A DNA stretch of 62,366 nt, from the sequence record SRR20825006_1719; one strand, written 5' to 3'. Below the pieces are notes generated by a model. The model was given only the letters and a program-made list of their open reading frames with translations. It was not told the DNA's origin and ran no database searches. Below, in pieces: positions 25,695 to 47,214 of the stretch; within the stretch, counting starts at the first letter, position 1, and each line of letters starts with the position of its first letter. A program made the translations under genes and the position numbers.

Positions 25695-25796
25695 CAAACA
25701 TATCGGGGTCCGGAAGGCTAAAAGCTTGATTTTCGACGGTTAAACTCCTACATTAGTTGAAAACCATTCATCGACAGATGAGTCATTCATCGAATG
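25695..25796. promoter_or_regulatory. Divergent promoter region with several LytTR-type boxes
   Basis: -7 box TATGTTTG (minus, 25695-25702); degenerate boxes at 25733 and 25754; CATTCATCGA exact twice at 25765-25774 and 25784-25793. Confidence 0.72.
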
Positions 25797-25847
25797 TTTT
25801 ATCTTAGCTATGTAAGAAATACAAACATTCCTATAGCTTTAAAATTC

Positions 25848-28800
25848 ATGAAAAACACCCCAAACAGATACTTGATTATCGCGCTGTTGATCGGTGTAGC
25901 CTTTCATGGGTTTAGCATCTTTTTTACGCTAGAAGGAACTTACGATGCGCTGATTCATTTATTTTTTGCAGATCATTATGCCACGCATTGGTTTGAACCA
26001 TGGAACTACAGCTGGTACACCGGTTTTACGGTGATGGGCTATCCACCTCTCGTGCATCAGTCTATCGCTATATTATCTTTAATTGGCGGTTTAAAATTTG
26101 GAATGTTCACCGTTGCTATACTTGGCGTCATCCTATTCATAACCGGTGTATATCGTTTTGCATTGCTCATCACAGCAAGCGCACACGCAGCCGGCTATGC
26201 GGCTATTCTGGCTGTGTTTTCTTCATCTTTTGTTGAAACACTACACATCTTTGGGCAGTTGCCCAGCATCATTGGTGTTTCGATCCTTATGCACGCGCTG
26301 CCCGAAATCTATCTTTGGCTGACCACCGGGCGCATAAAATTCTTTTTAACTTCGCTTTCTTTACTAGCTGTCACGGTTTGTTCGCATCACGTTACTCCAA
26401 TTTTTGGGATGGTATTCTTCATTTTTCCATTGATCGGAATGGCGGTAATGGATCAAGCGCGTACACAAGTAAACCGAATGAAAGACGTTACATTCGCGGT
26501 TTTTCTGAAAGCTTTTTTCAGCCTACTAAAACGAATGATCGCTTTTGGATTTGCTGCGCTGGCTTTAATAATTGTGTGCATTTTACCGTATTGGGTAAAC
26601 ACCAAGAATAATCCCATTACACAAGTACCAATCCCCCACGGTTCACGGGATAATTTTCTGGAAGTTACTTCTAGCGGACTCGTATTTTTCTTAATTCCGT
26701 GGGGCGTTTTGTTGCTCTTACTACCATACTTTTTTTACCGCTATTACAGTAAACGTTATTTGTTTTTTGGCCTTTCCCTCACGATGCTTACAATTTTGGG
26801 AAGTGGCGGCACAACGCCAATCCCTAAAATGATTTTAGGCGACAATGCCTTTAATATTCTCACTTTAGACCGGTTTACATTGTGGGGAAGTATTATGGTT
26901 TTACCCTTGTTTGGGGAGTTCGCTTATCGATTTGCCGAAGGCGATTACAAAAGCTTTTTGAGCACCAAATTAGGTGGTTTATATCATCGTATTCTCGCCG
27001 GTCTGCTCGCAGCGCTCTTTTTAGGAACGATGATCTTCACAATGACTTTAAATAACTTCAGACCCTCGCAACCTGATCCTATAAATATGTTGCCTATTGT
27101 GAATTTCCTCAATCAGGATCAGCATTACAAATGGCGGTTTTTGCCGCTAGGTTTTGGTGATCAAATTGCATGGCTTTCTGCCCAAACAGATGCGATGACG
27201 GTTGATGGTAACTACCATTCGGCGCGCAGGCTTCCTGAACTTACCACCAGAGCGATCGAGCGACTCGAGAATTCTAAATTCAGAGGAATTGAAGGTATAG
27301 GTTCGTTGCAGCAGTTTTTAACCATTCCTGAAAAATATCACCTAAAATATGTGTTCTCTAACGATAAATTTTATGATCCTATCCTCTACTTTTCGGGCTG
27401 GCAACGCTTGGGATTGCTTGAGAACGGCATTATGGTTTGGGAGAAATTAGGCGTCGCCCCAATGCCAGAGATCATCCCCAAAGATGATATTCCTCTGGTG
27501 CTCATATTGATGTGGGGGATCATCCCGCTGCTTACGGTGGTAATCGCGTTTGTCATTAATGTTCAATCGATCTGGCTGCGCGCGCTTCGGTCTAGTAAAC
27601 CTCAGCTCCCAGCGTATATGCAATGGTCAAACGACTATACTATTTCGGCTAAAACTTCAAAGAAAAGAAACCAACTGCTTTTTAATATCGCGCACGTATA
27701 TGGTGTGCTTCTCCTTGTTTGTTTCAGTCTGGGGGTTTATTCGTTTTACTTAAAAAATGCAGACCAACTTTCCCCAGAAAATGTAGTTGAAGCTTATTTT
27801 GACGCTTTAGACTTTAAAGAATTAGAGCGTGCTTATTCCTACTTTGATCCCAAAAGTGATAAAAATCTGGATCAATTTATGCTCGAATTTGCTGTCACAG
27901 ATGGTCTCCTGAACAGTTATGCGAAACTTGATGCGATTGCTGTTGAGATCACCAATCAGACCGACTCCACCGCAAGAGCTACCGCTTATGCTAAATGGAT
28001 CACTCCGCTAGAACTTATTCCAACTCAAGAAGATTTTGAACTCGTTCAACGGCATCAAAAATGGTATGTAATTCCTAAAAATCCTGATCTTGACTTACCT
28101 CCTGACCAACTGATCACAACTAACGAAACTGATTTTTACAACCACGGCAGGCGTCGTATTACTTCAGAACAAACTTATCACGAAGATATTCTCAAGCAGC
28201 CTGTGCTCGAGGTACTTTCGGCGCGATTGCTTCAAGTAGATGGTGCTTATATTATTTTGGGAGAACTGCAGAATATAGATAACCTTCCGGCTAATGTTTC
28301 TATAAAGGGAACGCTTTATGACGACCAAGATTTGCCTCTTGCGAGCTTTAATGCAAAATATGAGATGAAGCATAAGCTAATGCCTAAAGAGATCACTTCG
28401 TTTAAAATTGCTTTTGAAGGTACGGCCTGGTTAAAACCAGATGAGCACGCACCGCTCACCTTTAATCCGGACCAATTTACTCCGGTAGAATTAGACGGAA
28501 AACCGGTCACTTTTGACTTACACGTTTCGGCAAATGTGGCAAATACTGATTTGTATAAACGGGTGGTTGTAAATGATTTTTCATTAGAAGAAAACCAATT
28601 GTACACCACCTTGTTCAATCCCGGGACGCAGCAGGCGACTATTCCGCAGGTGTTGGTCTCGTATTATGATCGTGAGCACAACTTGACGTGGGTAGATCAT
28701 CATTTTTTACAGGAAGGAATCCGGCAGCAACGCCAGCAAGAAGTACAGATAGCTTTGAATAAAAAGTCTGGACAACTCATTAGTGATGCTATGGAAGCGA

Positions 28801-28949
28801 TTTATGTAAATGGGTTGTCTAATCAAGAAATCGCTCGTAAAGTGGTGCCCGAGCGCCAAACCGAGCAACAAAAAGCAGCGCACGTCAAACTGAAGGATGG
28901 AAGCTTTGTAAAATTAGAGATCAATACATTTTTAGGAAATCCGCGATGA
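25848..28949 (+). CDS. Large polytopic membrane protein, GT-C/PTPS-related-like N-terminus plus extracytoplasmic NTF2-like and FxLYD-like domains
   Basis: About 13 hydrophobic segments; first loop TYDALIH...WYTGF...GYPPL; C-terminal SPENVVEAYFDALD, GELQN...GTLYD, LVSYYD; ATG 25848 preferred because 25794 lies in the operator region. Confidence 0.7.
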   Translation: MKNTPNRYLIIALLIGVAFHGFSIFFTLEGTYDALIHLFFADHYATHWFEPWNYSWYTGFTVMGYPPLVHQSIAILSLIGGLKFGMFTVAILGVILFITGVYRFALLITASAHAAGYAAILAVFSSSFVETLHIFGQLPSIIGVSILMHALPEIYLWLTTGRIKFFLTSLSLLAVTVCSHHVTPIFGMVFFIFPLIGMAVMDQARTQVNRMKDVTFAVFLKAFFSLLKRMIAFGFAALALIIVCILPYWVNTKNNPITQVPIPHGSRDNFLEVTSSGLVFFLIPWGVLLLLLPYFFYRYYSKRYLFFGLSLTMLTILGSGGTTPIPKMILGDNAFNILTLDRFTLWGSIMVLPLFGEFAYRFAEGDYKSFLSTKLGGLYHRILAGLLAALFLGTMIFTMTLNNFRPSQPDPINMLPIVNFLNQDQHYKWRFLPLGFGDQIAWLSAQTDAMTVDGNYHSARRLPELTTRAIERLENSKFRGIEGIGSLQQFLTIPEKYHLKYVFSNDKFYDPILYFSGWQRLGLLENGIMVWEKLGVAPMPEIIPKDDIPLVLILMWGIIPLLTVVIAFVINVQSIWLRALRSSKPQLPAYMQWSNDYTISAKTSKKRNQLLFNIAHVYGVLLLVCFSLGVYSFYLKNADQLSPENVVEAYFDALDFKELERAYSYFDPKSDKNLDQFMLEFAVTDGLLNSYAKLDAIAVEITNQTDSTARATAYAKWITPLELIPTQEDFELVQRHQKWYVIPKNPDLDLPPDQLITTNETDFYNHGRRRITSEQTYHEDILKQPVLEVLSARLLQVDGAYIILGELQNIDNLPANVSIKGTLYDDQDLPLASFNAKYEMKHKLMPKEITSFKIAFEGTAWLKPDEHAPLTFNPDQFTPVELDGKPVTFDLHVSANVANTDLYKRVVVNDFSLEENQLYTTLFNPGTQQATIPQVLVSYYDREHNLTWVDHHFLQEGIRQQRQQEVQIALNKKSGQLISDAMEAIYVNGLSNQEIARKVVPERQTEQQKAAHVKLKDGSFVKLEINTFLGNPR

Positions 28950-30151
28950 AAAAAGCTGTCTTATATATATTCGTTTTTGTTGTCTTCAGTTTTACAATTC
29001 AACCGGAAACTGCTCCTGTCTCGCAAATAAAATTACTTACAACTAAAAGTACTTTTGTAGCAGGTGATGTGATTCAGTTAAAGTTTAAAACAGAAGCATC
29101 TGACTTAAAACTGTTGCTAGTCTCCAATTTGGGAACTATGCTCGTAAGTCCTGAAACTGAACAAGCTGTCAAAACATTTACAGTGCCCGAAGCATTAAGT
29201 ACTTCTGCAGGAGAATTGAATTGGGTATTGATTAAAAATGCTGAACTTCAAAAAGGATCGATCACCATTTTAGCTGACACAAACAAAATAGCCGCTATTG
29301 AATCGTATCTTGGTCCGCAACGCATTGCAGCGGGAGGTAACGATTATGCGCAGGTTACATTAATTTCTACTGATTGTTACGACAATGTTCTGCCTGATCA
29401 CACAGAACTTGCATTCACAACAAGTTTTAATAGTAAAACACAAACCGAAAAAATTGAGATTCAAAATAGTATTGCGTGGAAGAATATTTTATCAACCAAA
29501 GAGACCGGCCGCATCTTCAACTCCGCCCGAATACAAAAGGTTTCTTCTAAACTTCAGACGATTTATGTAGATGCAAATTTGGCGCAAGATTTTAATATAA
29601 TGGTTGAGCGTGTTCATCATTTCGCCGACGCAGATCAAATTACAGTTCTGAAAACCGATCTCATCAAAGATCGGTTGGGAAATACAATTCCAGATGGAAC
29701 TTTAGTCAACTTCCTTATCAAAACCGATACCGGCGGAATTTTACAAGCCACCGGAAACACGTTAAATGGAAACGCCACCGCTCAGATCAAACATCCTGAA
29801 CAACCGCAGCAATGGGAAATTCAAGCATTCATAACTGGGATTGCTACAAGTAACATTATTCCGATTAGCTTTTCCGCAGCTCTTGATACAATCCCCACCA
29901 CGTGGCATGCGGATAAATATACTTTAACCGTTGGTCCGCTCAACGGAAAATTAAATCAAATAGTTCCCGAAGGTACACGCGTAAAGCTCATCGTTAAAAA
30001 TGAAAATCAAACCTACACGTTAACACAAAAAACACAGACCGGAACAGCATCTTTTTATCTCGATCCTGCTGTTTATCAATCAGGAACCTATACTTTTAAA
30101 GTACAGGTTTTGGGTGTAAAGCAAACGCTAGAACCTATTACAATCCATTGA
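28946..30151 (+). CDS. Secreted beta-rich protein with invasin/Big-like Ig repeats
   Basis: Signal peptide; repeated D.(Y/L)(D/G)N.(L/I)PD(H/G)T.V.F-type units; ATGA overlap with upstream gene. Confidence 0.6.
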   Translation: MKKAVLYIFVFVVFSFTIQPETAPVSQIKLLTTKSTFVAGDVIQLKFKTEASDLKLLLVSNLGTMLVSPETEQAVKTFTVPEALSTSAGELNWVLIKNAELQKGSITILADTNKIAAIESYLGPQRIAAGGNDYAQVTLISTDCYDNVLPDHTELAFTTSFNSKTQTEKIEIQNSIAWKNILSTKETGRIFNSARIQKVSSKLQTIYVDANLAQDFNIMVERVHHFADADQITVLKTDLIKDRLGNTIPDGTLVNFLIKTDTGGILQATGNTLNGNATAQIKHPEQPQQWEIQAFITGIATSNIIPISFSAALDTIPTTWHADKYTLTVGPLNGKLNQIVPEGTRVKLIVKNENQTYTLTQKTQTGTASFYLDPAVYQSGTYTFKVQVLGVKQTLEPITIH

Positions 30152-31671
30152 AAAATCAAAATAAAAACATATATCGTGCACTGTTGATTCTTTCTTTTAT
30201 AGGATTGAATTTGCTGTTGGTTTCCGGGATCAGCAGTATACTTTCCTACCTCAACACAGGTGCCGATAAAAGTAAAATGCTCAATCTGGCTCTAGGCGCT
30301 GAACCGGTTTACAAGCCTCAGCTTGTTTGGAAAGACACGATCAACCCAAGCAGACCAATTGAAAAGCCTACCAAAAAGCGCGTTGCTCAAGATTATTTAA
30401 ATGCTTGGTATGTACGCGAGGTTGCTTTAGCTACTGGAGAGATTAAAGGAATTGCAGATTATTACACCTCTAGTGCTCGCGAAAAAATAAGCCGGATTCT
30501 TACTGAAAATAATGCCGCACAAACTCGTATAGAAAGTACTTCGCTCAATCACGAACTGCATTTAGAATTTTATAGCGCCGATGGACAACTCATCAGTTTT
30601 ACAGATCAAAATGTACTGGAGGTGCAACGTGTTTTTTCTGAAGATCAACTGATGCTTCAAACCCGGGATACTTCAGATTACAGAGTAATAATGTTGCTTG
30701 AAGACGGGTTTTGGCGCATTCGCCAACTGGTGCGCATCCCTAAAAATTCGGTAAAAGATTCCGTGGTTAATATTCCGCAGGAAAAACTTCCGAAGTGGAT
30801 TAAAGGAGTGAATTATTATCCACAAGAAAATGCCTGGGATACCTTCGGAAATTCTTTTAATCCTGAAACACTTGCCGCAGATTTTAAAAAGATAAAAGCA
30901 CTTCACCTCAACACCATTCGCATTTTTATAGGTTATGAAGATTTTGGCGCTGCTGATGTAATTGAAGACAAACTCAACAAACTAAGAGTTTTGCTAGATC
31001 TTGCTCAGGAACACAGATTGAACGTGATTATTACGCTTTTTGACTTTTACGGCGATTATTCGGTTTTAGATATGCCTAATACATTTAAGCACGCTTCTAC
31101 AATTATCAATACATTCAAGACACACCCAGCGCTTTTGGCTTGGGACATCAAAAATGAACCCGATCTGGATTATAAAAATCGCGGTGAAGACTTGGTTAAC
31201 TTTTGGCTGAAAAATCAGTTGGACCATATTAAAAGTTTAGATCCCGAAACACCGGTAACTATCGGCTGGTCAACTCCTGAAGCTGCCGTTGCGTTGGTAG
31301 AAAAGGTTGATCTGGTAAGCTTTCATTATTATCGAGACTTCGGAAACTTTGAAACTGCTTACACAACGTTGAAAGAAGCTACTAACAAGCCATTAATGCT
31401 TCAAGAATTCGGATGTTCAACGTATCGTGGTATCTGGAATCCTTTTGGAGCATCAGAGCAAAAACAGGCCGAATACTACAACACTTTTTTAAGTGATCTG
31501 AAACAGAAAAATCTACACTTCGCGATATGGACGCTTTATGATTACACAGAGGTTCCCACTAGTGTAGTAGGCCGGCTTCCGTGGCGCAAAGCTCCTCAAA
31601 AGCATTTCGGTATATTGAAGGAAAATAGCACCGATAAAAAAGCCGCTCAGGTTTTTAAAGAATCCCTTTAA
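30148..31671 (+). CDS. Membrane-anchored clan GH-A glycoside hydrolase (GH5/GH2-type TIM barrel)
   Basis: N-terminal TM helix; KGVNYYP, NTIRIF, WDIKNEP (acid/base), SFHYY, LQEFG (nucleophile); TTG start overlapping the upstream TGA. Confidence 0.85.
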   Translation: MKNQNKNIYRALLILSFIGLNLLLVSGISSILSYLNTGADKSKMLNLALGAEPVYKPQLVWKDTINPSRPIEKPTKKRVAQDYLNAWYVREVALATGEIKGIADYYTSSAREKISRILTENNAAQTRIESTSLNHELHLEFYSADGQLISFTDQNVLEVQRVFSEDQLMLQTRDTSDYRVIMLLEDGFWRIRQLVRIPKNSVKDSVVNIPQEKLPKWIKGVNYYPQENAWDTFGNSFNPETLAADFKKIKALHLNTIRIFIGYEDFGAADVIEDKLNKLRVLLDLAQEHRLNVIITLFDFYGDYSVLDMPNTFKHASTIINTFKTHPALLAWDIKNEPDLDYKNRGEDLVNFWLKNQLDHIKSLDPETPVTIGWSTPEAAVALVEKVDLVSFHYYRDFGNFETAYTTLKEATNKPLMLQEFGCSTYRGIWNPFGASEQKQAEYYNTFLSDLKQKNLHFAIWTLYDYTEVPTSVVGRLPWRKAPQKHFGILKENSTDKKAAQVFKESL

Positions 31672-31722
31672 ACACTTTTAGAGCAGCAAAACAATCTGAA
31701 GCAATAAACCCTTTGATAATAC

Positions 31723-31797: not shown

Positions 31798-33009
31798 TTA
31801 AGCAGACACGAGTTCGGTGTCTAGATCATTTTCCTCTATATTTTGTAATCGTTTAAATACTTGCACGTATTTATCAGCGATCGTAATCATTGGTAAGGCA
31901 GTGGCAGCCTTATAATTTGCGCGTCCCATAGCTGTTCTCAAGGTCTCATTTTCTAAAACGATCTTTAAAGATTCTGCCAAATCTTCAACATCATTAGGTT
32001 TAAAAAACTGAGCCTCATAGCCTTCTTCGCGTGAGAGAATGCCCAGATCTCCCAAATCTGGCATAACCACTGCTTTACCATAACTTCCTGCTTGATGCAG
32101 TACTCCGCTGCTTCCCGTAGTAGCCGTGTAGGGGAATACGACCACTGCGCTATCTTCAAACAATTTGGGGACATCTTCTTCGGCGACATAACCTGTAAAA
32201 CGCAGTTGAGGAACGTGAGCAAATTGCTTTTTCACACCTTCAAGATATCCTCTCACATTAGGATTATCAGTCCCGGCGATGACGATCTCAATATCTAGGT
32301 CGGTGCTTTGACGTAAGTGCTGTACCGCTTCAATAAGCATCTCCACTTTCTTATAGGTACCAAATTTGCCAAAAGTCATTACCTGTAGGGGGCCTTGCGG
32401 TAAGTCATATTTAGGAGTTTGAGGCAATTCAAAAGTTCCGTGCGGAATCAATCCTACATTAGTTGCTTTATATTTTTCCTGTAGAATAGTTACATATTTA
32501 CTGATGGTAAGCGCCACATAATCTGCTCGTAGCAGCAACCGAGTGAGCTGGCTTCCTATAAAATTATATGCTCGTTGTAAGAATTTGTTCTGTGTTATAC
32601 CGGCTGCGGAAAGATCAACTTCCTCTAAAATATTATGAAGTAACACCACCGAAGGAATACGCATCAATTTGCACATACCGGGAAGCATCAAGCCTAAAGC
32701 TGCAGGAATCTTTTTGTCTCCAAACTTCATAAACTGAAGATTAAACAACACCCCGTCTGGCTGCTCCTCTCTGATCGCTTTTAAAACTTTAGGCAGATTA
32801 CTATACGCATTAAAACTCCAGCACTTGATCACGCGCACTTTACAACCTGAAACATCCAGATGATTTTCGGCAACGTCGGCAGCAACATCTGCAAGCAATA
32901 CGATTTCGTCAACCTCTTGATGCATTCTCAATGCACGTACCAAATAAAACGCATATTCGTTAAGCGTAACTTTGCTGGGCGGAAAGGCAGTAACAACGGC
33001 TAGTTTCAT
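31798..33009 (-). CDS. GT4 (GT-B) glycosyltransferase, mannosyltransferase-like subgroup
   Basis: VVTAFPP, LLHN, IPHG, FGKFGTYKKVE, VVFPY...SSGVLHQAGSYGKAVV. Confidence 0.9.
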   Translation of the reverse strand: MKLAVVTAFPPSKVTLNEYAFYLVRALRMHQEVDEIVLLADVAADVAENHLDVSGCKVRVIKCWSFNAYSNLPKVLKAIREEQPDGVLFNLQFMKFGDKKIPAALGLMLPGMCKLMRIPSVVLLHNILEEVDLSAAGITQNKFLQRAYNFIGSQLTRLLLRADYVALTISKYVTILQEKYKATNVGLIPHGTFELPQTPKYDLPQGPLQVMTFGKFGTYKKVEMLIEAVQHLRQSTDLDIEIVIAGTDNPNVRGYLEGVKKQFAHVPQLRFTGYVAEEDVPKLFEDSAVVVFPYTATTGSSGVLHQAGSYGKAVVMPDLGDLGILSREEGYEAQFFKPNDVEDLAESLKIVLENETLRTAMGRANYKAATALPMITIADKYVQVFKRLQNIEENDLDTELVSA

Positions 33010-33033: not shown

Positions 33034-33103
33034 CAAATTTGAGAAGAATACCATTTCTAAAATGCAAGAAAACGTTTGATCACCGCTTACTGTCGACGAA
33101 TGG
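33034..33103 (-). promoter_or_regulatory. GT4 promoter: LytTR-type box and -7 element
   Basis: CTGTCGACGAATGG 33090-33103; CAAATTTG 33034-33041; 48-nt gap. Confidence 0.78.
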
Positions 33104-34389: not shown

Positions 34390-34683
34390 TTAAGCGACTC
34401 CTAATAGGTACCGCTTTCCGGCAAGACCAAATGTGCAACTCACCGACTTATTATTCAGCCCTTTAAACAGCACCAGTTTCCCACTATTGCGGTAATGATT
34501 TTGCAACGTGATCAACTTCATCACCGTGCGCAAAGTGAGTTCGTGCAACTGACTAAGATCAATGACGATCTTTTTCTGCGATCTAAAATCTTCATTGATC
34601 GTTGCTGCCAGTTCACCAACGGACTGCACTTTTAAAATTCCACGTATTTGAATAGTTTCTGAGGTAGTGATAAATGAATACAT
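34390..34683 (-). CDS. Small STAS-like domain protein
   Basis: 97 aa; IQIRGIL, IVIDLSQLHEL, LVLFKG pattern of STAS_2/MlaB-like folds. Confidence 0.62.
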   Translation of the reverse strand: MYSFITTSETIQIRGILKVQSVGELAATINEDFRSQKKIVIDLSQLHELTLRTVMKLITLQNHYRNSGKLVLFKGLNNKSVSCTFGLAGKRYLLGVA

Positions 34684-34710: not shown

Positions 34711-34780
34711 CAAATATCTGTGGAAGCATTTTGCAAAAACGCTCTATTTCGGTCATTGGAATTTTACTGTAGATGAATGG
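34711..34780 (-). promoter_or_regulatory. STAS-flippase promoter: LytTR-type repeat pair and -7 element
   Basis: TCGGTCATTGG 34749-34759 and CTGTAGATGAATGG 34767-34780 (21-bp period); GATATTTG 34711-34718; 48-nt gap. Confidence 0.8.
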
Positions 34781-34924
34781 ATTCCTTTTATAAGTCAAAC
34801 AGCTTTTAATGGATTAAACTTTAAAAAGTCACCCATTTCGCAAGAAATAATCCTTAAACAGCTTGAATAGTTGCCCACTTTGAGGCTTCCTGTTTTAGTG
34901 TTTTCCGTGAGTTGCGCTTTAGCT

Positions 34925-34979
34925 TCGATAAGCGGTAAATACCTGTAGATTAAAAAAATAGCGTTCACCGCTAACTTGC
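34925..34979. promoter_or_regulatory. LytTR-type boxes upstream of the TPR gene
   Basis: TCGATAAGCGG 34925-34935 and TAGATTAAAAA 34946-34956 (21-bp period); GCGTTCACCGC 34961-34971 is the exact reverse complement of 47161-47171. Confidence 0.55.
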
Positions 34980-37904: not shown

Positions 37905-40340
37905 TTAATTCACGAGTAATTTTCCTTTATACGTCTGACCTGCTTCGGTGATGACTTTATACGTATACATCCCGGTGGAAAGTCCGTTACGATCCAGGCG
38001 CAAAACATCATTATTTCCGGTAGGGTTTTCTTTCTTCCGCAGTACTTCTCTTCCGCTTAAGTCTATTACAGCAAGCGTCGCCTCATTGGTCGGCTCAGGC
38101 AATTTGATCAACGTAAATGCGGTAAAAGGATTAGGAAAGTTATGTACTTCTGCAAGCTGAGTTTCTTCTTGAAATGCTTCTTTAGACAATGTGCGATTGG
38201 TACTGAACGCCACGTTTTTTAAATCTACTTGTACCGAAGTACTATTTACAAAATCTCCTTGTATTGAAAAGACCACACTACGGATCGCGGTAAGCGACTG
38301 AGAAGCTCCCGAGCCGTCTTCAAAAGCATCAAACGGAATGATAAAATGCTGCTCGGTCGAAGTTTCGGGGATCACATAGCGCAACCGCTGACTCCAATCC
38401 TCAAGCTGTGCCGGAACCAAGATAACTTCAATAGGAGCATTAGCCTTAACACTAAATTCTAAAGCCGAAAGATCGTGCACATCTAACGCAAGTTCGCCTG
38501 CTAAAAGATGTCTAAAAACGTTTAAAGTTCCCTTAACCTCAGCGCTGACTGTTACTTCTCGCTCCACAAGATATTCTGCATCTTGAGCTTCTTTCTGAGG
38601 CTGCATCACCTCAAAATCATTCACGTAAACTTCCTCTTCTTTGTAATCAATGCCCCAAGGACCATCTGCCAGATATAAGGCATCGTAGGTTGGATTCTGT
38701 GTATCATAAAGCGCTATTCCCGCGTCAAAAAGATGCCCCGTAGTAATTTCGATCTGCTCCTCATAAGCCCCGCTCAAAGCCACCCAATGCTCTTGCGTTT
38801 GTAAAGCTTCGGTTTCTGTAGGATGAATATTTGCACGTGTGCTAATGCCCGTAACGCCGGTTTTGTTTTGTACGTTAAGCATTAATTTTCCGTCGTAATA
38901 ATATCCACTTTTCACAAAAACCTGTGGAAGTTTATCTACCGTCGTATCCGCCGCTAAAGGTTGCGATTGCTCAAAAACATCAAGGGTATAATTCACTAAA
39001 GCGCTCACCTGCCCTACAGACTTTCCCCAGAATTGAAAATTGAGATAATCACCTTCAGGATATTGATCTATATTCCAAAAACTGTAAACAGTAGGGTTGT
39101 TTGATTTATGATTTACCGAAAAACTAACGGCATATTCCAGATTACCATTGGCGCGCTTGATCTTAGCCAAAATGAGCGTGTGCCCGCGTAATTGAAACGT
39201 TCTAATATCTTCTAAGGAAGAACCATTTAAACGATCGCAAATGGTTTTTGCGTGATCATAAACGCCATCATTCGTTTCCAACAACAAGCCTGCTGCAACA
39301 CGGTCTGCTCCCTGATAATAGTCGATCGCAAAAACGCCCGAAGCATTTGTTATTTCTTGTAAATCAGACGGGCTGGCAATCGCTGATTCTTCAGTCCCAA
39401 AAAGTGCCGACTCCCCAAAATAGCTTGCCAGATTTGAATTTCCATTTTTTGAAGGAAACTTGCTTTTATTGAATTTGCGCTGTGCAGCTTTAGTATTCTT
39501 ATGATCCGCAGTTTGCGTACGCTTGAGATTTCGCTTTGCGATCAATGTTGAAAGATCTCCGTTGCTCTCTAAACCTCCATCATATGCAGAATTGACCTTT
39601 GTAGCCGAATCTACATCGGCGTAATTTCGAGTTTCAAGAGCACTATACGGGTTTGCTGAAATATAAAACAGCGCATCGTTAAAATCCTGATCGCACGAAC
39701 CGTAATCGCGGCGTATATCTTCAAAACCCAAAATAATACGTTCATTGACGGGGTCATTGAGCAATACATTATGATACCGTAAATCTTCTTGCGCCTCGGG
39801 ATTAAAATCAGGATTTGAGTATAATTGCCATAATCCCCAAGTCACTTCAGACTGCCACGCATTTGCTAACAACACCCAGCCTATACCGGTTCCTGCTTCA
39901 AAAGATCCTAGTTTTACTTTGTTACCTGCAACGAGGCTTCCTCCAGACCATTTTGCTGAAACATTAGGAAAAACAATCGTGATCTCGTGATCGTAAGGCG
40001 CACGATCTAAAGGGTTATTGACGTCATAAGTATAAAATCCAAGTACGTTTTTATATCCTGCACCTTCAGCGACAAAGGTTACAAAAACCTCAGCATCTTC
40101 CTGCACGATGATATCTGTGTCATATCCGCTAGAAATATAATGCGGATTATAAATAGGCACAGGAAAAGATTCCGGTAGAGAATTAGAAACCATTTGAAGC
40201 GTTTCCGGGCTAACGACATCATTTTGAGGTTCTAAATAAAGTGGTGTTCCGTCTGCTGTATAATCTCCTAAAAAATTAAAGTTTTGGGCAGCAGCGCTTG
40301 TAACAATCGACAACGCAAAAAGTAAGTGTAGCAGTCTCAT
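37905..40340 (-). CDS. T9SS-secreted DUF4114-domain protein
   Basis: Signal peptide from ATG 40340 (AAA-Q); EGAGYKNVLGFYTY, GFEDIRRD..CDQDFNDALF; type-A CTD (NFPNPF...IDLSGR...GMYTYKV...KLLVN). Confidence 0.85.
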   Translation of the reverse strand: MRLLHLLFALSIVTSAAAQNFNFLGDYTADGTPLYLEPQNDVVSPETLQMVSNSLPESFPVPIYNPHYISSGYDTDIIVQEDAEVFVTFVAEGAGYKNVLGFYTYDVNNPLDRAPYDHEITIVFPNVSAKWSGGSLVAGNKVKLGSFEAGTGIGWVLLANAWQSEVTWGLWQLYSNPDFNPEAQEDLRYHNVLLNDPVNERIILGFEDIRRDYGSCDQDFNDALFYISANPYSALETRNYADVDSATKVNSAYDGGLESNGDLSTLIAKRNLKRTQTADHKNTKAAQRKFNKSKFPSKNGNSNLASYFGESALFGTEESAIASPSDLQEITNASGVFAIDYYQGADRVAAGLLLETNDGVYDHAKTICDRLNGSSLEDIRTFQLRGHTLILAKIKRANGNLEYAVSFSVNHKSNNPTVYSFWNIDQYPEGDYLNFQFWGKSVGQVSALVNYTLDVFEQSQPLAADTTVDKLPQVFVKSGYYYDGKLMLNVQNKTGVTGISTRANIHPTETEALQTQEHWVALSGAYEEQIEITTGHLFDAGIALYDTQNPTYDALYLADGPWGIDYKEEEVYVNDFEVMQPQKEAQDAEYLVEREVTVSAEVKGTLNVFRHLLAGELALDVHDLSALEFSVKANAPIEVILVPAQLEDWSQRLRYVIPETSTEQHFIIPFDAFEDGSGASQSLTAIRSVVFSIQGDFVNSTSVQVDLKNVAFSTNRTLSKEAFQEETQLAEVHNFPNPFTAFTLIKLPEPTNEATLAVIDLSGREVLRKKENPTGNNDVLRLDRNGLSTGMYTYKVITEAGQTYKGKLLVN

Positions 40341-40357: not shown

Positions 40358-40427
40358 CAAAATTAAAGGACCACCTCAAGCCAATTTATTGATTTTCGGT
40401 AGATGGCTTTTAAGTATAGTTAAATGG
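40358..40427 (-). promoter_or_regulatory. DUF4114 gene promoter: LytTR-type repeat pair and -7 element
   Basis: TCGGTAGATGG 40396-40406 and GTATAGTTAAATGG 40414-40427 (21-bp period); TAATTTTG 40358-40365; 48-nt gap. Confidence 0.8.
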
Positions 40428-40440: not shown

Positions 40441-41160
40441 TTAAAGCAAGTTAAGCCGCTTCATCAAAATAGGTCTATTGGATCTGCTGATAGGAATCAC
40501 ATCTTTTGCGATCAATACACTATTGTCTTCTATATCAATGATCTTATGATAGTTGATCACATACGAACGGTGTATTTTTAAGAACTTACTTTCAGGCAGT
40601 TTTTCTTCTATTTTCTTGAGCGTAGAGTGTACGGTGTAATTTTTACCTTCGGTTTTAATCAAGATGTAATCACCTTTAGCTTCGATGATCAAAATGCTAT
40701 CAAAATTAAGTTTGATCAAACGACGATCGATGTTGATATACAGGTCGTTCTCAGTCTCTTGTTGCGGCTGACTTTGTACCGAAGTATCCTGAATAGGCTC
40801 TGTGCTTGCTACAAATTGTTGCGCCTTTTGAACAGCCTTTAAAAAACGCGGAAGCGCCACAGGTTTTACTAAATAATCTACGATGCACTCATATTCAAAA
40901 GCCTCGATAGCAAAATTGCGATCAGACGAAGTCAAGACAATTCTAGGCGGATTTTTTAAGGTCTGAATAAAATCAAATCCGGTAAAATCAGGCATATGAA
41001 TGTCAAGAAAGATAAGGTCTACCTCGTTTTGATTCAGGTATTTTATCGCACTAATCGCATTCTCAAATTGAGCTACCACTTCAACATCTGCGGTTTTATC
41101 ACAGTGGTTGCGAATTATAGAACGTGCTAAAGCTTCATCGTCGATTATAATGCAATTCAT
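40441..41160 (-). CDS. LytTR-family response regulator
   Basis: IIDDE, FLDIHMP, DYLVKP receiver; FLKIHRSYVIN...IPISR LytTR domain. Confidence 0.95.
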   Translation of the reverse strand: MNCIIIDDEALARSIIRNHCDKTADVEVVAQFENAISAIKYLNQNEVDLIFLDIHMPDFTGFDFIQTLKNPPRIVLTSSDRNFAIEAFEYECIVDYLVKPVALPRFLKAVQKAQQFVASTEPIQDTSVQSQPQQETENDLYINIDRRLIKLNFDSILIIEAKGDYILIKTEGKNYTVHSTLKKIEEKLPESKFLKIHRSYVINYHKIIDIEDNSVLIAKDVIPISRSNRPILMKRLNLL

Positions 41161-41169
41161 AAGTAGGTT

Positions 41170-41487
41170 TTAAAGCTTCTTGACAAAAGCGTTAAGTTCA
41201 TCAATGATTTTTTTAAAAGCTGGAGCAGAAGTTGGGTTTTCGGCTCTAAGCTCATTTTCGTAAGCCGCTGCGGTTGCGTAAGCTTCTTCCATATTCAAGA
41301 TACTAATTTTATGTTTTAGCTTATGAACACTTTCGGCAGTTTGTTTAAAATCATTTTGCTCTAAATGAAATTGATACTGCTCAAGCTCAGCAGGAAGCTC
41401 TTCTTTAATGATGCTGATCATTTCCTGTTCAAAGCTAGCAGTTCCGCCGGCAATCTCTTTGATCTTATCTAAATTTGGCTTTGTCAT
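41170..41487 (-). CDS. Stand-alone Hpt phosphotransfer protein
   Basis: 105 aa helical; NLDKIKEIAGG...F, SVHKLKHKI phospho-His motif. Confidence 0.88.
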   Translation of the reverse strand: MTKPNLDKIKEIAGGTASFEQEMISIIKEELPAELEQYQFHLEQNDFKQTAESVHKLKHKISILNMEEAYATAAAYENELRAENPTSAPAFKKIIDELNAFVKKL

Positions 41488-41488
41488 T

Positions 41489-42541
41489 TTAGTGTTTAGG
41501 CAAGGTAAAATAAAAGGTGGTTCCCTCTTTGGGTTTTGAACTTAACCAAATCTTTCCACCATAGAATTTTATGATCTTTAATACAATTGAAAGTCCAATA
41601 CCCTTGTGTTTAGCGTCTTGTTCTAAAGTTTGAAAAACTTGAAAAACCTTATCGTGATAGGCAGGATCAATACCTCTACCATTATCAGCAATACTAAATT
41701 CATAGCATTCATCGCGCTCTTCAAAAGTTATACGCACAACGCCTTGCGCTTTATCATTATAATTAATCGCATTCTGAATTAAATTTTGAAACAACTGCTG
41801 AAACCTAAACGAATTACCATAAACCTTAGGCAAGTGCTTTAGCACACTAATTTCTATATGTTTAGGTGTATGCATCGTCGCCAGCAGATCTGTAACCAAG
41901 CGATTGAGATCAATAGCATGTTTGTCGTCTACCGCCTTATCAATAGCCGAATATTCTAAAATCCCCTGAATCAGGTTATGCATATGCTCAACGTGCTCTA
42001 AAATAAGATCTAGATTTTCTATACTCTCCTCAGATAAACGGTCATCTTCAATAATAAAATTAGTAAGCGCATTAATATTATTGAGAGGTGATTTTAGGTC
42101 GTGCGAAACAATATGTGCATAGTCATTGAGTTCCTCATTTTGCTTTTCGAGTTGAGCGAGTAATTCATCACGATGTTTATTGGTAGCTATAATTTCGCGT
42201 GTCTGGTTATCAATCACACGAGCAAGTTCTAGCGCATCCAGATTGATACTGTCTTTTTTAGGCGTCTCAAGCTGATTATTATACTTATAGAGTGCCGCAA
42301 TGGTCTGTGTTAAACTCTCGATTATGCTTTTCTGCTGCGAGGTTTCTTTCTGTAATTTTTTATTCGCCTCAAACAACTCATCAGAGCTTAAAGACATGGC
42401 TCGCTGCACCATAGTCAACTGCTCTTCGTAATTGGTATACGAACTGCTCACAGCATCTAAAAATACCTGAAGTTGCTCATCAAGCTCAACACCTTTTTCT
42501 AATAAATGCTTCCGTATCTGTCGTTGTAAAAGCCTATTCAT
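41489..42541 (-). CDS. Cytoplasmic sensor histidine kinase (FIST-associated)
   Basis: No TM segment; coiled N-terminus; VSHDLKSPL H-box, QNLIQNA, DNGRG, GIGLSIV, GTTFYF. Confidence 0.93.
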   Translation of the reverse strand: MNRLLQRQIRKHLLEKGVELDEQLQVFLDAVSSSYTNYEEQLTMVQRAMSLSSDELFEANKKLQKETSQQKSIIESLTQTIAALYKYNNQLETPKKDSINLDALELARVIDNQTREIIATNKHRDELLAQLEKQNEELNDYAHIVSHDLKSPLNNINALTNFIIEDDRLSEESIENLDLILEHVEHMHNLIQGILEYSAIDKAVDDKHAIDLNRLVTDLLATMHTPKHIEISVLKHLPKVYGNSFRFQQLFQNLIQNAINYNDKAQGVVRITFEERDECYEFSIADNGRGIDPAYHDKVFQVFQTLEQDAKHKGIGLSIVLKIIKFYGGKIWLSSKPKEGTTFYFTLPKH

Positions 42542-43675
42542 CTATTCACTTATTAGCGTTAGTGTCATCGTTTGATTGTGCAATTCGCAGATGCGATCAT
42601 CAGCAAATGGAGCGAGCTCTCCATAACTGTAAAATCCTGTGAGCGTGGTATTTTTTCCGAGCACTTCGCATACTTCTTCTATCTCTTCCTCTACCCGCTG
42701 ATGCATGACTAACTTTCGGCCAACACAGCTTACTAAAATGGCTAATTCAGGTGGTGAATTTCGGTGTTCTACCGCGCGCTTCGCCGCTTCAGAAGCTCCG
42801 TCTACAATTCCATCTACGGTAGCCATCATAAGATTTACCCGTGAACCTTCTGGAGCGTCACCGGCTAAAACCATCGCATTCGTGTCTTCATCTATGTTGA
42901 GAATCGTACGTACTAACGGATTTTTTTTATGTTCAAACTGAACGCTTAGCGGATAAAGCAATGCCGCCTGAGGCAATTCAGAAGCTTTATCGCCTAAATA
43001 CTTTTTGTAGAGATCCAGCGCAGGTCTGTGATCAAGCTCGTACAACACATTACCCGAAGATTTTGTAATAAGCCGTTCTGGACCAAAAGAAAACCAACCC
43101 CCATAATTGGCAAAACTGATCTCTAGCGAGTCGCCATAAAGGCCTATAAGCACAACTTCGCCTTCCTTAGCCGGCTGATTATACCCACAAAGCGTTTTTT
43201 CAAAACGAGCATCATCTCCACATAAACCTCCCGTAATTGCAATATCAGTATCTAAAACCGAGGACAAGCCATTAATGAGTTCGCTCCCGTTTACAAAACT
43301 TCCTTCAGAAAGAACAAAAACATGTTTAAGTCCGTTTTTATTAATACGCTCTGCAAGAACTTTTCCGGTAGCAAAACTTTCTTTATTGTGTTCTAAAATG
43401 GAAGCGCTTACGATCTCAAAAGCAGACTTTTCAAATTCTATAGCGGTATAAGCCAAACCATCACTAAGCACATTAGTCCCTGTAATTTCACCAGCCGTGG
43501 ATCCTAAAACAAGATGCCCGTCAGGAAACTGCGCTCTCAATTGTGTAAAAATCGAATCATCTTCAAGTAAAAACCGATTTGAAAACACCAGTACAAGCGG
43601 AGCTTTGAGAGACGATGCTACCTCAGTATGTTGCCAATTGCCCGAAGCATCGCGTGTGCCTTGTTGTATTTTCAT
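42542..43675 (-). CDS. FIST N+C domain sensor protein (NosP-like)
   Basis: GSTAGEI, ITGGLCGD, NVLYELDHRPALDLY, VSCVGR, GFYSYGE, HNQT. Confidence 0.92.
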   Translation of the reverse strand: MKIQQGTRDASGNWQHTEVASSLKAPLVLVFSNRFLLEDDSIFTQLRAQFPDGHLVLGSTAGEITGTNVLSDGLAYTAIEFEKSAFEIVSASILEHNKESFATGKVLAERINKNGLKHVFVLSEGSFVNGSELINGLSSVLDTDIAITGGLCGDDARFEKTLCGYNQPAKEGEVVLIGLYGDSLEISFANYGGWFSFGPERLITKSSGNVLYELDHRPALDLYKKYLGDKASELPQAALLYPLSVQFEHKKNPLVRTILNIDEDTNAMVLAGDAPEGSRVNLMMATVDGIVDGASEAAKRAVEHRNSPPELAILVSCVGRKLVMHQRVEEEIEEVCEVLGKNTTLTGFYSYGELAPFADDRICELHNQTMTLTLISE

Positions 43676-43679
43676 TACT

Positions 43680-46037
43680 TTACTTTTTTAGACTGAAATA
43701 AAACGTGGTTCCATCACCCGGCGTACTTTCTAACCAAATATCACCATGATAAAGATCAATTATTTTCTTTACAATTGATAAACCAATACCTGTTGAATCT
43801 TCGTGATCAGTCAAAGACTGAAAGATTTTAAATATTTTATTGTGATATGCCGGTTCGATCCCCATCCCATTATCCTCAACAGCAAAAACGTGGCGATGCG
43901 CTTCTTCGGTATATCTGATCTCCACCCAGCCTTCTGCTTTATCACAATAGCGTACTGCGTTGCTGATCAAATTCTGAAAAACCTGCTGAATGCGTATACG
44001 GTCAATAGGTATAACAGGCATAGAGCCTTTTTTAATTTGAATATGATCAGGAATGTGAATAAGCTCTGTAACGCCATCTATCACACTACCTATATCCGTA
44101 GCGTCATCCTGAGTATGATCGCGCTGAATACTGCTGTAATTTAAAATACCTGTGATTAAAGCTTCCATCTTTTCTAAGGTGTTTTCTAGATTTTCAAAAT
44201 CCTCAAGACTTTGATCGTCAAGATGTTGCAAATTATCTTCCTTGATCCAATTCGCCAAAGCATTTATACTTCTCAACGGACTTTTTAAATCATGAGAAAC
44301 CACGTGTGCGTATTCTTGAAGTTCGCGGTTACTCTTTTCTAGATTGGCAAAAAGCAAATCTTTTTGAGCTTCTAAATTTTTAATCTCGGTAATATCCAGA
44401 TGAATTCCTATAGAACCAACAAGCTTTCCATTGATGTCAAAATTGGGAGCTCCACTAATCAACCAATTGCGCTTCTGCCCGGCTTTGTTGAGCACCTCAA
44501 CTTCATAAGAATCAGAAACTCCTTGTGCTCTAACTTTAGTTTTGCTGTGAATGATCTCTTGACTTTTAGGCTTCATAAAAAGTGCTGCAGCTTTTTTACC
44601 TATAAGCTCTTCTTTACTGAAACCACTTATTTCACAAAAACTCTGATTGGCTAATAGAATACGATCCTCATTATCTACTTCGAGCAAGCCTAAATTCATA
44701 TTAGCGATAATACTGCTGTATTTCTCTTTCTGCTGCTGTAAATCATTCTTATAGCGGCGTTGAAGCGTAACATCTGTGTAGCTCCACAGATGACCTTTAT
44801 AATTTCCGTTAGTGAAAATAGGCACAAAATCCCGTTCCAGAATTCGGCCATCCTTGAGTTCAAGCTCATCGCCAGTAACGAGTTCACGCGCAGAAATAAT
44901 CTCTTTTATACGCGCCACAAATGCTTCCGGATCCTTAAATAGTGGTTTGTTTTCTTCTGCAGCATTAATACAGCTTAGGCCTTTTAAAGCTTCCGGCTTA
45001 GCCGAAATACCAAACATATCGCAAAACATCTGATTGGTAAGCACAATGTCGCGCTGTTCATCTTCTAGTAAAATTCCGTTTTGCAGTCGGGAAATAAGGG
45101 CAGAAAGTCGGTTTTCAGATTCTACCAATTGCTCGCGCGCCAGCAGTTCTTTTGTCACATCTTCAACAGTGATCACCTCTTGAATCTGCATCCCGTTTTC
45201 AGGATTTTTTATCGCTGTGCCATTGATCTTAGTAGTAATGATCTGGCCGCTTTTTGTGATGTACTTTTGAGTACTTACAAAAGCATTAACCGCTCCTTCT
45301 TGCAAAGCCTCTAGCTGCTCTTTATAATCTGATTTTTCAGCAGCAAAGGTTAGGGCTTTTAGGTCTTTTCCTGAGATTTGATCCTCGGAAAAAGCGAGAA
45401 TATTTTTAAAGCTTGTGTTACACTTTTGAATCTTACCATTTATGGCAAGGGCTATCCCTAATGGAGAGTTGTTTACAATAAACTCGAGCTGTTGTTTTTG
45501 CTCCTCAATGATCGTGGCTTTGCTCTCTTCTAAAGTAATATCGCGCACAATGCCCTGCGCGACAATTGCCTTATTATTCTCATCAAGAATGGTACTGGCA
45601 TTTATATGAACACGTCTTATGTCACCAGATTTGGTGCGTATACTCACTTTAAAATCTGTGATACTGCCTTGTTTAAGCAATTTTTTAAAGGCCGTTTCAA
45701 CAGATTTCTGTTCTTCTTCTAAAACTAAATAGGGTAAAAAAACGGGTTCTTTGGTGGCATCATAGCCCATTAACGTTACCGCAGCATCGTTCATCTTTAA
45801 CACGCGACCGTCAATATCAATAACAACATAGGCATCAGCCAAGTTTTCAAAAACCCCTTGTAACTCAGAATTCTTCTGATAAATTAATGATTGAAGTTGA
45901 TCATTAGATTTTTTTAATTCTTCAGAAAGCGCGTAAAGCTCAGTAGACTTTTGCTCTAAAATAGCCTCTGCAGCTTTACGTGCACTACGCTCGCGAGCGA
46001 TAAGTCTTTTATATAGCGCTACGCTTTCTGTTTCCAT
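43680..46037 (-). CDS. Cytoplasmic multi-PAS (4x) histidine kinase (H-NOX-associated)
   Basis: Four PAS/PAC repeats ending RDIT/EDVT/TDVT/LDIT; VSHDLKSPL, QNLISNA, DNGMG, GIGLSIV. Confidence 0.94.
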   Translation of the reverse strand: METESVALYKRLIARERSARKAAEAILEQKSTELYALSEELKKSNDQLQSLIYQKNSELQGVFENLADAYVVIDIDGRVLKMNDAAVTLMGYDATKEPVFLPYLVLEEEQKSVETAFKKLLKQGSITDFKVSIRTKSGDIRRVHINASTILDENNKAIVAQGIVRDITLEESKATIIEEQKQQLEFIVNNSPLGIALAINGKIQKCNTSFKNILAFSEDQISGKDLKALTFAAEKSDYKEQLEALQEGAVNAFVSTQKYITKSGQIITTKINGTAIKNPENGMQIQEVITVEDVTKELLAREQLVESENRLSALISRLQNGILLEDEQRDIVLTNQMFCDMFGISAKPEALKGLSCINAAEENKPLFKDPEAFVARIKEIISARELVTGDELELKDGRILERDFVPIFTNGNYKGHLWSYTDVTLQRRYKNDLQQQKEKYSSIIANMNLGLLEVDNEDRILLANQSFCEISGFSKEELIGKKAAALFMKPKSQEIIHSKTKVRAQGVSDSYEVEVLNKAGQKRNWLISGAPNFDINGKLVGSIGIHLDITEIKNLEAQKDLLFANLEKSNRELQEYAHVVSHDLKSPLRSINALANWIKEDNLQHLDDQSLEDFENLENTLEKMEALITGILNYSSIQRDHTQDDATDIGSVIDGVTELIHIPDHIQIKKGSMPVIPIDRIRIQQVFQNLISNAVRYCDKAEGWVEIRYTEEAHRHVFAVEDNGMGIEPAYHNKIFKIFQSLTDHEDSTGIGLSIVKKIIDLYHGDIWLESTPGDGTTFYFSLKK

Positions 46038-46575
46038 GACCTTTTTCTATAAAAAACCGTACGTGCGTACCATCTGTTTTTAACTTTTGAAAACGCACTT
46101 TAGAATCAAAACCAAAATAAGTAAACGTCTCGTGCATAAGGCCAAGACCAAAGCTATACATAGCTCTACTAGAATGGTAGTCTAAAATTAAAGATTGGTT
46201 TGTTTTATTTATGGTTTTAAAGGTGGGTAACTGGGAGTCCGGATAAATTTTGCGTACTTCTACGTGAATGTGATCTTCAATGGAAGCTAATAATTCTAAA
46301 GGATCTGTGTAACTGTTTAAAAGCGCCGCATAGCTCGTCTCGATCACTTTAAAAAAATGCTGTGCGTAAACGTATAAAAGTTCGTCTATACTCAGCTGTG
46401 TGCGTTCACTTAAAGCGGTTAATAAGCTCACCATCTCGACGAATTTATAAGTGCCTACCGCAGTGTAAGCTCCGCCAGATTCAAGATCAGACGCCTGAAT
46501 GATCGCATCAACCATCTCAAGACCAAATTTATCTTCTACAAGCTCTAAAAATTCAGTAAACACAACACCTTTCAT
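46009..46575 (-). CDS. H-NOX haem nitric-oxide/oxygen-binding protein
   Basis: MKGVVF start, proximal His in HIHVEV, conserved LP, YxSxR (YHSSR), GL; ATG 46575 overlaps the upstream TGA. Confidence 0.92.
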   Translation of the reverse strand: MKGVVFTEFLELVEDKFGLEMVDAIIQASDLESGGAYTAVGTYKFVEMVSLLTALSERTQLSIDELLYVYAQHFFKVIETSYAALLNSYTDPLELLASIEDHIHVEVRKIYPDSQLPTFKTINKTNQSLILDYHSSRAMYSFGLGLMHETFTYFGFDSKVRFQKLKTDGTHVRFFIEKGHGNRKRSAI

Positions 46576-46991
46576 CACGTATGAATTAATTCGTTAAGAC
46601 TCCAGTAATTAAGTAGATTAGTGATTTTACTCACATAATCTTCATATTTTAAAGGTTTAAGCACATAACCCGCGATTCCTATTTCATAGCACTGCTTTAC
46701 ATCATTATGATTGCTAGAAGTGGTCAAAATGATCGTAGGAATGTATTTAAGCATTGCGTCTGCTTTCAAGATTTTTAAGAACTCGATCCCATTAATTTTA
46801 GGCATATTGAGGTCAAGTAGAATAATATCTGGCAATGCGCTTTTATCTTCTAAAATTTGCAATGCTTCTTCTCCATTTTTTGCTTCTATCAAATGATGCT
46901 TCAGGGCACTCTGTGCAAGCACGCGTTTGAGTTTCATAATCTCAATACGGTCATCTTCGATTAACAAAATGGTTAAGACTCTTCCTTTCAT
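46575..46991 (-). CDS. Single-domain response regulator (Rcp/CheY-like)
   Basis: LIEDD, ILLDLNMPKING, IILTTS, YVLKP. Confidence 0.94.
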   Translation of the reverse strand: MKGRVLTILLIEDDRIEIMKLKRVLAQSALKHHLIEAKNGEEALQILEDKSALPDIILLDLNMPKINGIEFLKILKADAMLKYIPTIILTTSSNHNDVKQCYEIGIAGYVLKPLKYEDYVSKITNLLNYWSLNELIHT

Positions 46992-47123
46992 TTCAATCTT
47001 GTTTGAATTGGGTAATTACCTATTAATTTTATTTTACAAGAAAAACCCTTTAGGTTCACTAGACCTAAAACATTTTACTTCTAAAAAATTCCAAAGCATA
47101 ACTCTGAAAATTAATGATCTATA

Positions 47124-47214
47124 CAAAAGTCTCAATAATGCCTAAAAAATATATTTAAAAGCGGTGAACGCAATACGAAGTATAGACGAATGGTAGTTTA
47201 GTGTAGATAAATAG
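47124..47214 (-). promoter_or_regulatory. Signalling-operon promoter: three LytTR-type boxes and -7 element
   Basis: GCGGTGAACGC 47161, GTATAGACGAATGG 47180-47193, TAGATAAATAG 47204; GACTTTTG 47124-47131; 48-nt gap. Confidence 0.78.

Follow-up and report, generated by a model that had tools for sequence, protein, structure and literature searches.

Regulators of the LytTR family act from direct-repeat operators, those of AgrA and ComE among them. The available part of PMC4847170 describes such sites as direct repeats of 9-11 nt with spacers of 11-13 nt, one strong distal and one weak proximal, and has YpdB of Escherichia coli binding its site A and then its site B. Here we analyse a stretch of 62,366 nt from sequence record SRR20825006_1719 (the window), in which a repeated motif precedes five transcription units. 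We put at roughly 0.8 the probability that this motif is the operator of the REC-LytTR response regulator encoded at 40441-41160 (minus strand), which would be phosphorylated through a relay and would recruit sigma-A RNA polymerase at five promoters, its own included. As far as YpdB sites A and B are set out in the source above, the motif resembles them in its direct repeats of a 9-nt core plus a 12-nt spacer, its strong distal and weak proximal copies, its place upstream of the promoter core and its cognate REC-LytTR. Unlike YpdB-type operators, it has another sequence, stands at Bacteroidota -7 promoters that lack a -33 TTG, and serves a second, inverted class of promoter; unlike the LytS or AgrC kinase partners, the kinases here are HisKA kinases with an Hpt protein.

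The core of the AlgR box of Pseudomonas aeruginosa is CCGTTCGTC (PMC4064291), one base from the core found here, CCATTCGTC, and CCGTTCGTC itself occurs among the natural copies of the motif. Like the regulator proposed here, AlgR is of the LytTR family, and it controls exopolysaccharide genes, as that regulator is predicted to do; AlgR belongs to a different phylum with a different sensor. The AlgR sites at algD are, in the portion of that literature available, scattered (-470, -394 and -45) and without a 21-bp tandem, unlike the sites here. For the LytTR Regulatory System (LRS), the accessible text of PMC6193735 gives autoregulatory direct repeats, usually 12 bp apart and just upstream of -35, predicts them for Bacteroides LRS-like operons, and reports that positive feedback through direct repeats was shown for HdrR. 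The likeness lies in the autoregulatory direct repeats ahead of the promoter core. An LRS pairs its regulator with a membrane inhibitor, whereas the present regulator has a receiver domain, kinases and an Hpt protein, and its operon contains no membrane inhibitor gene. Nor is the operon of LytS/LytT type: both of its kinases are HisKA, and PF06580 occurs only in the separate gene 23084-24115. H-NOX/histidine-kinase circuits that control biofilm in response to nitric oxide (NO), such as HnoX-HnoK of Shewanella and HqsK/HahK of Vibrio, offer a further comparison. As in those circuits, H-NOX adjoins a HisKA kinase and an Hpt relay with a predicted surface-polysaccharide output; unlike them, the output regulator would be a LytTR protein with a compact local regulon, and a Pfam scan of 45 window proteins found a GGDEF or EAL domain in none.

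The repeated motif is real. Its consensus is CCATTCRTCKACAS, a direct repeat with a period of 21 bp, in which the core is extended by KACAS. The first-pass annotation, made from the letters of the window, had listed five plus-strand 14-mers each separated by 48 nt from a minus-strand nAnnTTTG box, and a reverse copy at 25764-25777; on direct reading the 14-mers, the boxes, the five gaps and the reverse copy are all exact. It had also placed a weaker half-site 21-22 bp toward each gene; the weaker repeat is present in all five arrays, at an offset of 21 nt every time. All five arrays serve minus-strand promoters. That of the signalling operon has a strong repeat A, CCATTCGTCTATAC (47180-47193, predicted at -74 to -61), a weak proximal repeat B, TGCGTTCACCGCTT (47159-47172), and a -7 box, GACTTTTG (47124-47131), with the predicted start at 47119. 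A third, upstream repeat, CTATTTATCTACAC (47201-47214), absent from the earlier list, lies 21 nt upstream of the 47180 repeat, and 47 nt from it is an alternative box, TATATTTT (47146-47153). The DUF4114 promoter combines repeat A, CCATTTAACTATAC (40414-40427), repeat B (40393-40406) and the box TAATTTTG (40358-40365); the STAS-flippase promoter repeat A, CCATTCATCTACAG (34767-34780), repeat B (34746-34759) and the box GATATTTG (34711-34718); and the GT4 promoter repeat A, CCATTCGTCGACAG (33090-33103), repeat B (33069-33082) and the box CAAATTTG (33034-33041). The GT2 promoter array (25730-25764) has a degenerate repeat A (25751-25764), a good repeat B, TTAACCGTCGAAAA (25730-25743), and the box TATGTTTG (25695-25702). 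A true TAnnTTTG is found in two of the five window boxes, the remainder being nAnnTTT[GA].

A three-part model was trained only on 50 promoters from other genera, with 200 dinucleotide shuffles of the window as the control. It scored 34767 at 44.5, 40414 at 34.0, 33090 at 29.5 and 47201 at 26.5, the top shuffle maximum being 24.3. The sites 25751 (17.8) and 47180 alone (16.7) are marginal under this model, since 8 of the 200 shuffles reached at least 18 and 24 reached at least 16.5. Outside 23000-47800, the remaining 37 kb of the window gave no match of at least 17. With a profile, R1, the six named sites are the top six among 20 window matches, at E-values of 4.8e-13, 4.9e-8, 2.8e-7 and 1.7e-5, then 0.004 (+25763) and 0.098 (GT2 site). 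As a lone 14-mer 25751 is no motif match (-1.7 bits, with 1659 window positions equally good). Its repeat B and box are good, and R1 matched the GT2 promoter in each of five genomes (E 1.5e-7 to 0.025), so we accept this site by orthology.

Conservation was assessed in 74 loci of other genera, five loci from Leeuwenhoekiella and a duplicate having been excluded, using a matrix built from four window sites, a cut-off of at least 12 bits, and a span from 300 nt upstream to 60 nt inside the open reading frame (ORF). A sense-strand site stands ahead of the receiver gene, the start of the operon, in 71 of 73 loci, ahead of DUF4114 in 40 of 48 and ahead of GT4 in 21 of 30, while an antisense site stands ahead of the TPR gene, that is, on the STAS side, in 31 of 41. 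The background rates are 1/365 for internal operon genes and 22/327 for other genes. The predicted site before the regulator's own operon, as proposed in the first-pass annotation, recurs in nearly all orthologues. A single exact 14-mer discriminates poorly, matching in 65 of 201 genomes; among 20 exact matches from genomes without a LytTR orthologue, none has a -7 box and 19 are inside ORFs.

The distance from site to nAnnTTTG box, over 341 matches in 75 loci, is 47, 48 or 49 nt in 23, 84 and 7 cases. There is a second peak of 27, 7 and 9 cases at 68, 69 and 70 nt, and every other distance has between 0 and 7. The second peak equals the first plus one 21-bp repeat and reflects three-repeat arrays. 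When the site was picked without reference to the box, spacings of 47-49 nt were found for 20/20 GT4 promoters, 23/24 STAS promoters and 24/38 DUF4114 promoters, a further 12/38 of the last having 68-70 nt. The spacing that had been called an invariant 48 nt is therefore exact within the window, while in relatives 48 is the mode of a 47-49-nt class that is joined by the 68-70-nt class.

A TTG in the -33 window is expected about 19-21 nt upstream of a -7 box. For gaps of 17-22 nt, no position has it in more than 3 of 232 promoters, and the full TAnnTTTG is found in 104 of the 232 related boxes, the others being nAnnTTT[GA]. Because the -33 TTG is missing and the -7 box is often non-consensus, these promoters are plausibly weak and in need of an activator. 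With the box at -12 to -5, the position given for the Bacteroidota -7 box in the available text of PMC9723704, repeat A falls at -74 to -61 and repeat B at -53 to -40 of the predicted start sites.

A genome-wide motif scan, which the first-pass annotation had proposed, was run with R1 in five whole genomes of relatives, with 150 candidates scored in each. Of the matches at E<0.01, 22 of 24 are inside the locus, and in two Leeuwenhoekiella genomes outside the training set all 9 of 9 are. These counts suggest a regulon that is largely local, with a few distal members. One distal site with full geometry (L153, G005:C3, position 2669) is upstream of a LytS/LytT-like pair, which suggests a regulatory cascade. 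In nine loci of relatives (L036, L037, L053, L064, L073, L035, L051, L137 and L158) another polysaccharide cluster lies behind the motif, with UDP-glucose dehydrogenase, an outer-membrane efflux protein, Wzx- and Wzy-like genes and a receiver-fused sugar transferase. As judged from gene content, some relatives appear to have swapped the outputs while retaining the operator.

Sites in the opposite orientation belong to a second class of promoter. The TPR gene has a TAACTTGC box (34972-34979, plus strand) of the form TAnnTTGY, which is the SM5-type promoter box in the accessible text of PMC9723704. It is preceded by an inverted repeat pair (34922-34935 and 34943-34956, minus strand), weak in the window and absent from the first-pass annotation, whose members end 36 and 15 nt before it. 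Forty-eight TPR regions were examined, and in 36 of the 45 with a box the best inverted site lies 15 or 36 nt before it. In many relatives this inverted site is physically repeat A of the STAS promoter; a separate pair is retained where a long distance divides the two promoters, the window being one such case. Ahead of the GT-C operon there are two reverse copies 19 nt apart (25764-25777 and 25783-25796, plus strand), which end 22 and 3 nt before a candidate -7 box, TATCTTAG (25800-25807, plus strand); TATCTTAG or TAYCTTTA is found in 8 of the nine regions shown. The reverse copy at 25764 does precede this operon, as had been noted, but it is not an activating site of the 48-nt class: no -7 box lies 48 nt downstream of it, and it overlaps the predicted promoter core. 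The pair is retained in two other Leeuwenhoekiella, and one such copy in an Aquimarina.

The inverted TPR sites and the GT-C copies, at the distances just given, fall within the polymerase footprint, as they would if the same LytTR mainly represses, or activates in one direction and represses the divergent TPR and GT-C promoters, with feedback on its own operon that is negative or mixed. We regard this as unlikely, given that the five main promoters have no -33 TTG and keep all their repeats farther upstream than about -40, in conserved helical phase, a layout that is that of LytTR activators in the part of PMC6193735 available.

Co-occurrence points to 40441-41160 as the protein that binds. 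Its orthologues (at least 62% identity) were found in 14 of 201 sampled Flavobacteriales genomes, the centre genome included. Of the genomes with the orthologue, 11 of 13 have R1 matches at E<=1e-3 (5 of 7 among those giving no training sequence); such matches occur in one of three genomes with a 51-53% relative, and in none of 64 orthologue-free genomes, which were hand-chosen and mostly larger. The first-pass annotation had named as the alternative a paralogue at 24120-24824. This was not found (E<=1e-55) in 16 of 18 orthologue genomes, both Leeuwenhoekiella included; its close relatives occur in 2 of the 18 and in four motif-free genomes. In 6/6 loci compared its neighbours include a kinase of PF06580 type and a TonB receptor gene in divergent orientation, and its intergenic region has a different conserved 21-bp repeat. 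The assignment of the motif to 40441-41160 is thus supported by comparison, as is the description of the motif as a direct-repeat operator of LytTR type. Beside the LytS/LytT-type pair 23084-24824, the window itself has a repeat of 21-bp period with a GTCGTTT core (22930-22960, minus strand), upstream of divergent TonB-dependent receptor and siderophore-interacting genes and similar in five related loci aligned.

Weak R1 matches (E 0.001-0.01) occur in 10 of the 64 orthologue-free genomes, and six of these regions were examined. Five have an operon of Dps, a LytTR of 35-37% identity and a hybrid kinase, upstream of which the layout of repeats A and B and 48 nt recurs; the sixth has no site above threshold. 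In these operons (L141-L144 and L146, of genomes G122, G092, G157, G104 and G162) repeats are found upstream of Dps and of nearby genes, for example a bicupin gene. The segments EAxGDY and xH[SG], which by analogy with AgrA would be the DNA-contacting loops, are common to 40441-41160 and the distant Dps-operon LytTRs, while the paralogue 24120-24824 has KADMDY and SNE. Several of 15 further match regions from a class-wide sample retain the full geometry, and two genomes of that sample have an additional site next to an EALADY-type LytTR.

Binding by a regulator that is unlinked or a paralogue, be it 24120-24824 or some other LytTR in the genome, would suit the many LytTR paralogues per genome, the similar sites far from any LytTR gene in other Bacteroidia and the possibility of cross-binding. 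It is nonetheless very improbable, considering how rarely the paralogue accompanies the motif, that it has a receptor gene and a repeat of its own, and that the orthologue-free genomes yielded no R1 match at E<=1e-3. We give almost no credence to an alternative-sigma promoter element or an RNA-level signal, despite the constant spacing from the -7 box and the departure of the boxes from the consensus, as the motif lies 40-74 nt upstream of the predicted start and so outside the transcript, is a two- or three-fold direct repeat of 21-bp period that is also found inverted, and the window cluster showed no gene for a sigma factor.

Several points weigh against the motif as an operator bound by 40441-41160. 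The autoregulatory promoter has an nAnnTTT[GA] box at 47-49 or 68-70 nt in just 32 of 64 orthologous sites. Orthologous promoters and loci are related, so that the counts are of non-independent events, and 8 of the 50 R1 training promoters came from orthologue genomes that were later searched, and others came from G005 loci. Two orthologue genomes, G008 and G171, have no R1 match, although the matrix does place a site upstream of their receiver gene. The receiver, kinase and Hpt genes co-occur with the motif as well as LytTR does, and because of this co-occurrence alone cannot exclude an unlinked factor. No full-length REC-LytTR was found in any of the 15 class-wide match regions (2-9 kb on each side, some limited by contig ends), and no site lies close to the genes of the 50%-identity LytTRs of G009, G025 and G047. 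As for the extent of the regulon, only the top 31-150 candidates per genome were scored, and weak distal sites may be missed.

We propose that a dimer of the LytTR protein 40441-41160 would occupy two repeats 21 bp apart, the strong distal A first and then the weak proximal B, a third repeat joining the array at the operon's own promoter. Repeat B would lie just upstream of the place of a -33 element, and the bound protein would activate by recruiting sigma-A RNA polymerase. Activation is the most likely action because no -33 TTG is present at these promoters and their -7 box often departs from the consensus. Input would come through a split phosphorelay, from H-NOX (and FIST where present) to the HisKA kinases, the stand-alone receiver or Hpt, and then LytTR, with NO as the putative signal. 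H-NOX in its NO-bound form usually inhibits its kinase, so that NO could act in either direction. The predicted outputs are the operon itself, the type IX-secreted DUF4114 protein, STAS-flippase, GT4 and GT2, and the opposite-orientation sites would put the TPR-porin and GT-C promoters under LytTR too. The first-pass annotation had added that positive feedback might give bistability. This claim is not supported by the sequence, since the receiver and H-NOX would be induced together with the regulator and could dampen the loop; positive feedback alone is generally insufficient for bistability.

The window is Leeuwenhoekiella-like, its LytTR being 86% identical to that of L. blandensis. The minus-strand signalling operon (46991-40441) is densely packed. 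Its genes encode, in order, a stand-alone receiver (46575-46991; Pfam Response_reg), the haem gas sensor H-NOX (46009-46578; Pfam HNOB), a PAS-domain HisKA histidine kinase (43680-46037), whose gene overlaps that of H-NOX, a FIST-domain protein (42542-43675), a second, soluble HisKA kinase (41489-42541), an Hpt phosphotransfer protein (41170-41487) and the REC-LytTR regulator. All were assigned by Pfam, with co-occurrence added for the last as the proposed binder; the similarity of the FIST protein to NosP is weak and under the family cut-off. The nearest solved structure to the H-NOX protein is 6BDD (E 3e-69), which is Kordia algicida H-NOX according to the available text of PMC7356049. H-NOX is present in 74 of 80 related loci and the FIST gene in 43. 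Two genomes (L134 of G056, and L135-L136 of G195) have duplicated close copies of LytTR, and in G056 there is a second Hpt-LytTR pair with a motif site of its own. The predicted leader (46995-47119, minus strand) is longer than in L. blandensis (~128 against 50 nt) and contains, at about 47040-47075, an AU-rich hairpin with a short run of U after it. In metatranscriptomes, four assemblies include parts of the cluster. Contigs from three studies end at 47089, 47099 and 47102, within the predicted leader, and none extends into 47379-48000; we do not count these ends as evidence of a start site.

Among the output genes, the DUF4114 protein (37905-40340, minus strand), which carries a sorting tail for type IX secretion, likely starts at ATG 40340, the ORF call extending to 40379. 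The TPR protein (34998-37052, plus strand) has a PgaA-like porin similarity at E 5e-14, under the cut-off. The STAS-like protein of 97 aa (34390-34683, minus strand) has no Pfam match of its own; its positional equivalent in L007 matches STAS. The multi-pass membrane protein beside it (33117-34364, minus strand) had no family match and may, from its size and context, be flippase-like. The GT4 (31798-33009) and GT2 (24846-25658) glycosyltransferases, both on the minus strand, were assigned by Pfam. The window GT2 has 270 aa and no receiver domain; orthologues such as L129 8408-9577 have 379-400 aa, and one that was scanned has an N-terminal receiver domain.

The plus-strand GT-C operon (25848-31671) encodes a GT-C-fold membrane protein (25848-28949), a 401-aa protein of no assigned family (28946-30151) and a GH5/GH2-like hydrolase (30148-31671). 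We shifted the start of the first gene from 25794, the probable start being 25848 because most homologues have 1029-1033 aa. A model of this protein built from an alignment (pLDDT 92.8) matches AglB, STT3, PglB and ArnT (E 4e-7 to 5e-4, TM ~0.4-0.5), which confirms the GT-C label given to it in the first-pass annotation. A sequence search of solved structures with the protein gave no match, and an alignment-free model was discarded at pLDDT 43. The region 47789-62119 is a separate polysaccharide-utilisation region (UxuA, GH115, SusD, SusC, LacI, fucosidase) with no motif sites.

In relatives, a motif promoter may be followed by an ORF-less unit of 70-260 nt that ends in a terminator, with up to five such units in tandem. 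We counted 30 in 22 loci, one being the window's own leader. They include those at L099 13900-15300 and L019 11014-12800, just after lytTR in L025, L027, L052, L070 and L080, and also in L140 and L091. The word TT[AG]AT[AG][AG] stands before the hairpin in 15/30 of these units, compared with 83/1215 other terminators, and their terminator covaries. Where a unit follows lytTR immediately, it may also serve as the terminator of the operon. In L064, L052, L025 and L070, and not in most others, such a unit can pair with the lytTR start region (-13 to -21 kcal/mol). A duplex test of the units gave no consistent target, lytTR ranking first in 4/17 loci and DUF4114 in one, and the seed complement was found near few start codons only. 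The units had no Rfam match, the window had no Rfam match, tRNA or tmRNA, and the small-RNA model R2, scanned over 90 sources, found no copy in the window. At 47260-47440 (minus strand) the window has a TAAATTTG box (about 47431-47438), then about 150 ORF-less nt and a strong terminator (47265-47300), possibly a small RNA upstream of the operator.

A literature search of main texts, with few subscription papers among them, found no paper on this motif or regulon, its spellings matching only two unrelated papers. A conserved LytTR operator that would connect an H-NOX phosphorelay with a glycan cluster thus appears to be unpublished, while the binding mode itself, by analogy, would be that already familiar from LytTR proteins. 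Only a small number of binding sites for transcription factors have been defined in Bacteroidota. The motif supplies exact bases to mutate, defines a predicted regulon for an otherwise unstudied H-NOX phosphorelay, and would place a type IX-secreted protein and a GT-C/GT2/GT4/porin glycan cluster under the control of a gas sensor. Surface-polysaccharide switching in marine flavobacteria, and the action of an activator at -7 promoters without a -33 element, thereby become testable. A broader reading, which we hold only tentatively and at less than even odds, is that a Bacteroidota LytTR subfamily (EAx[GA]DY, H[SG]T) shares one operator code and one geometry that replaces the -33 element, with sensors and outputs re-wired around them. 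Its operators would serve divergent promoters in both orientations, those of SM5 type (TAnnTTGY) included, and in relatives would drive multi-copy small RNAs, some perhaps feeding back on the regulator's start codon. The re-wiring would be to an H-NOX relay and glycan genes here and to a hybrid kinase and Dps elsewhere. If this is true, the locus would represent, in Bacteroidota, an NO-to-exopolysaccharide switch whose operator is defined.

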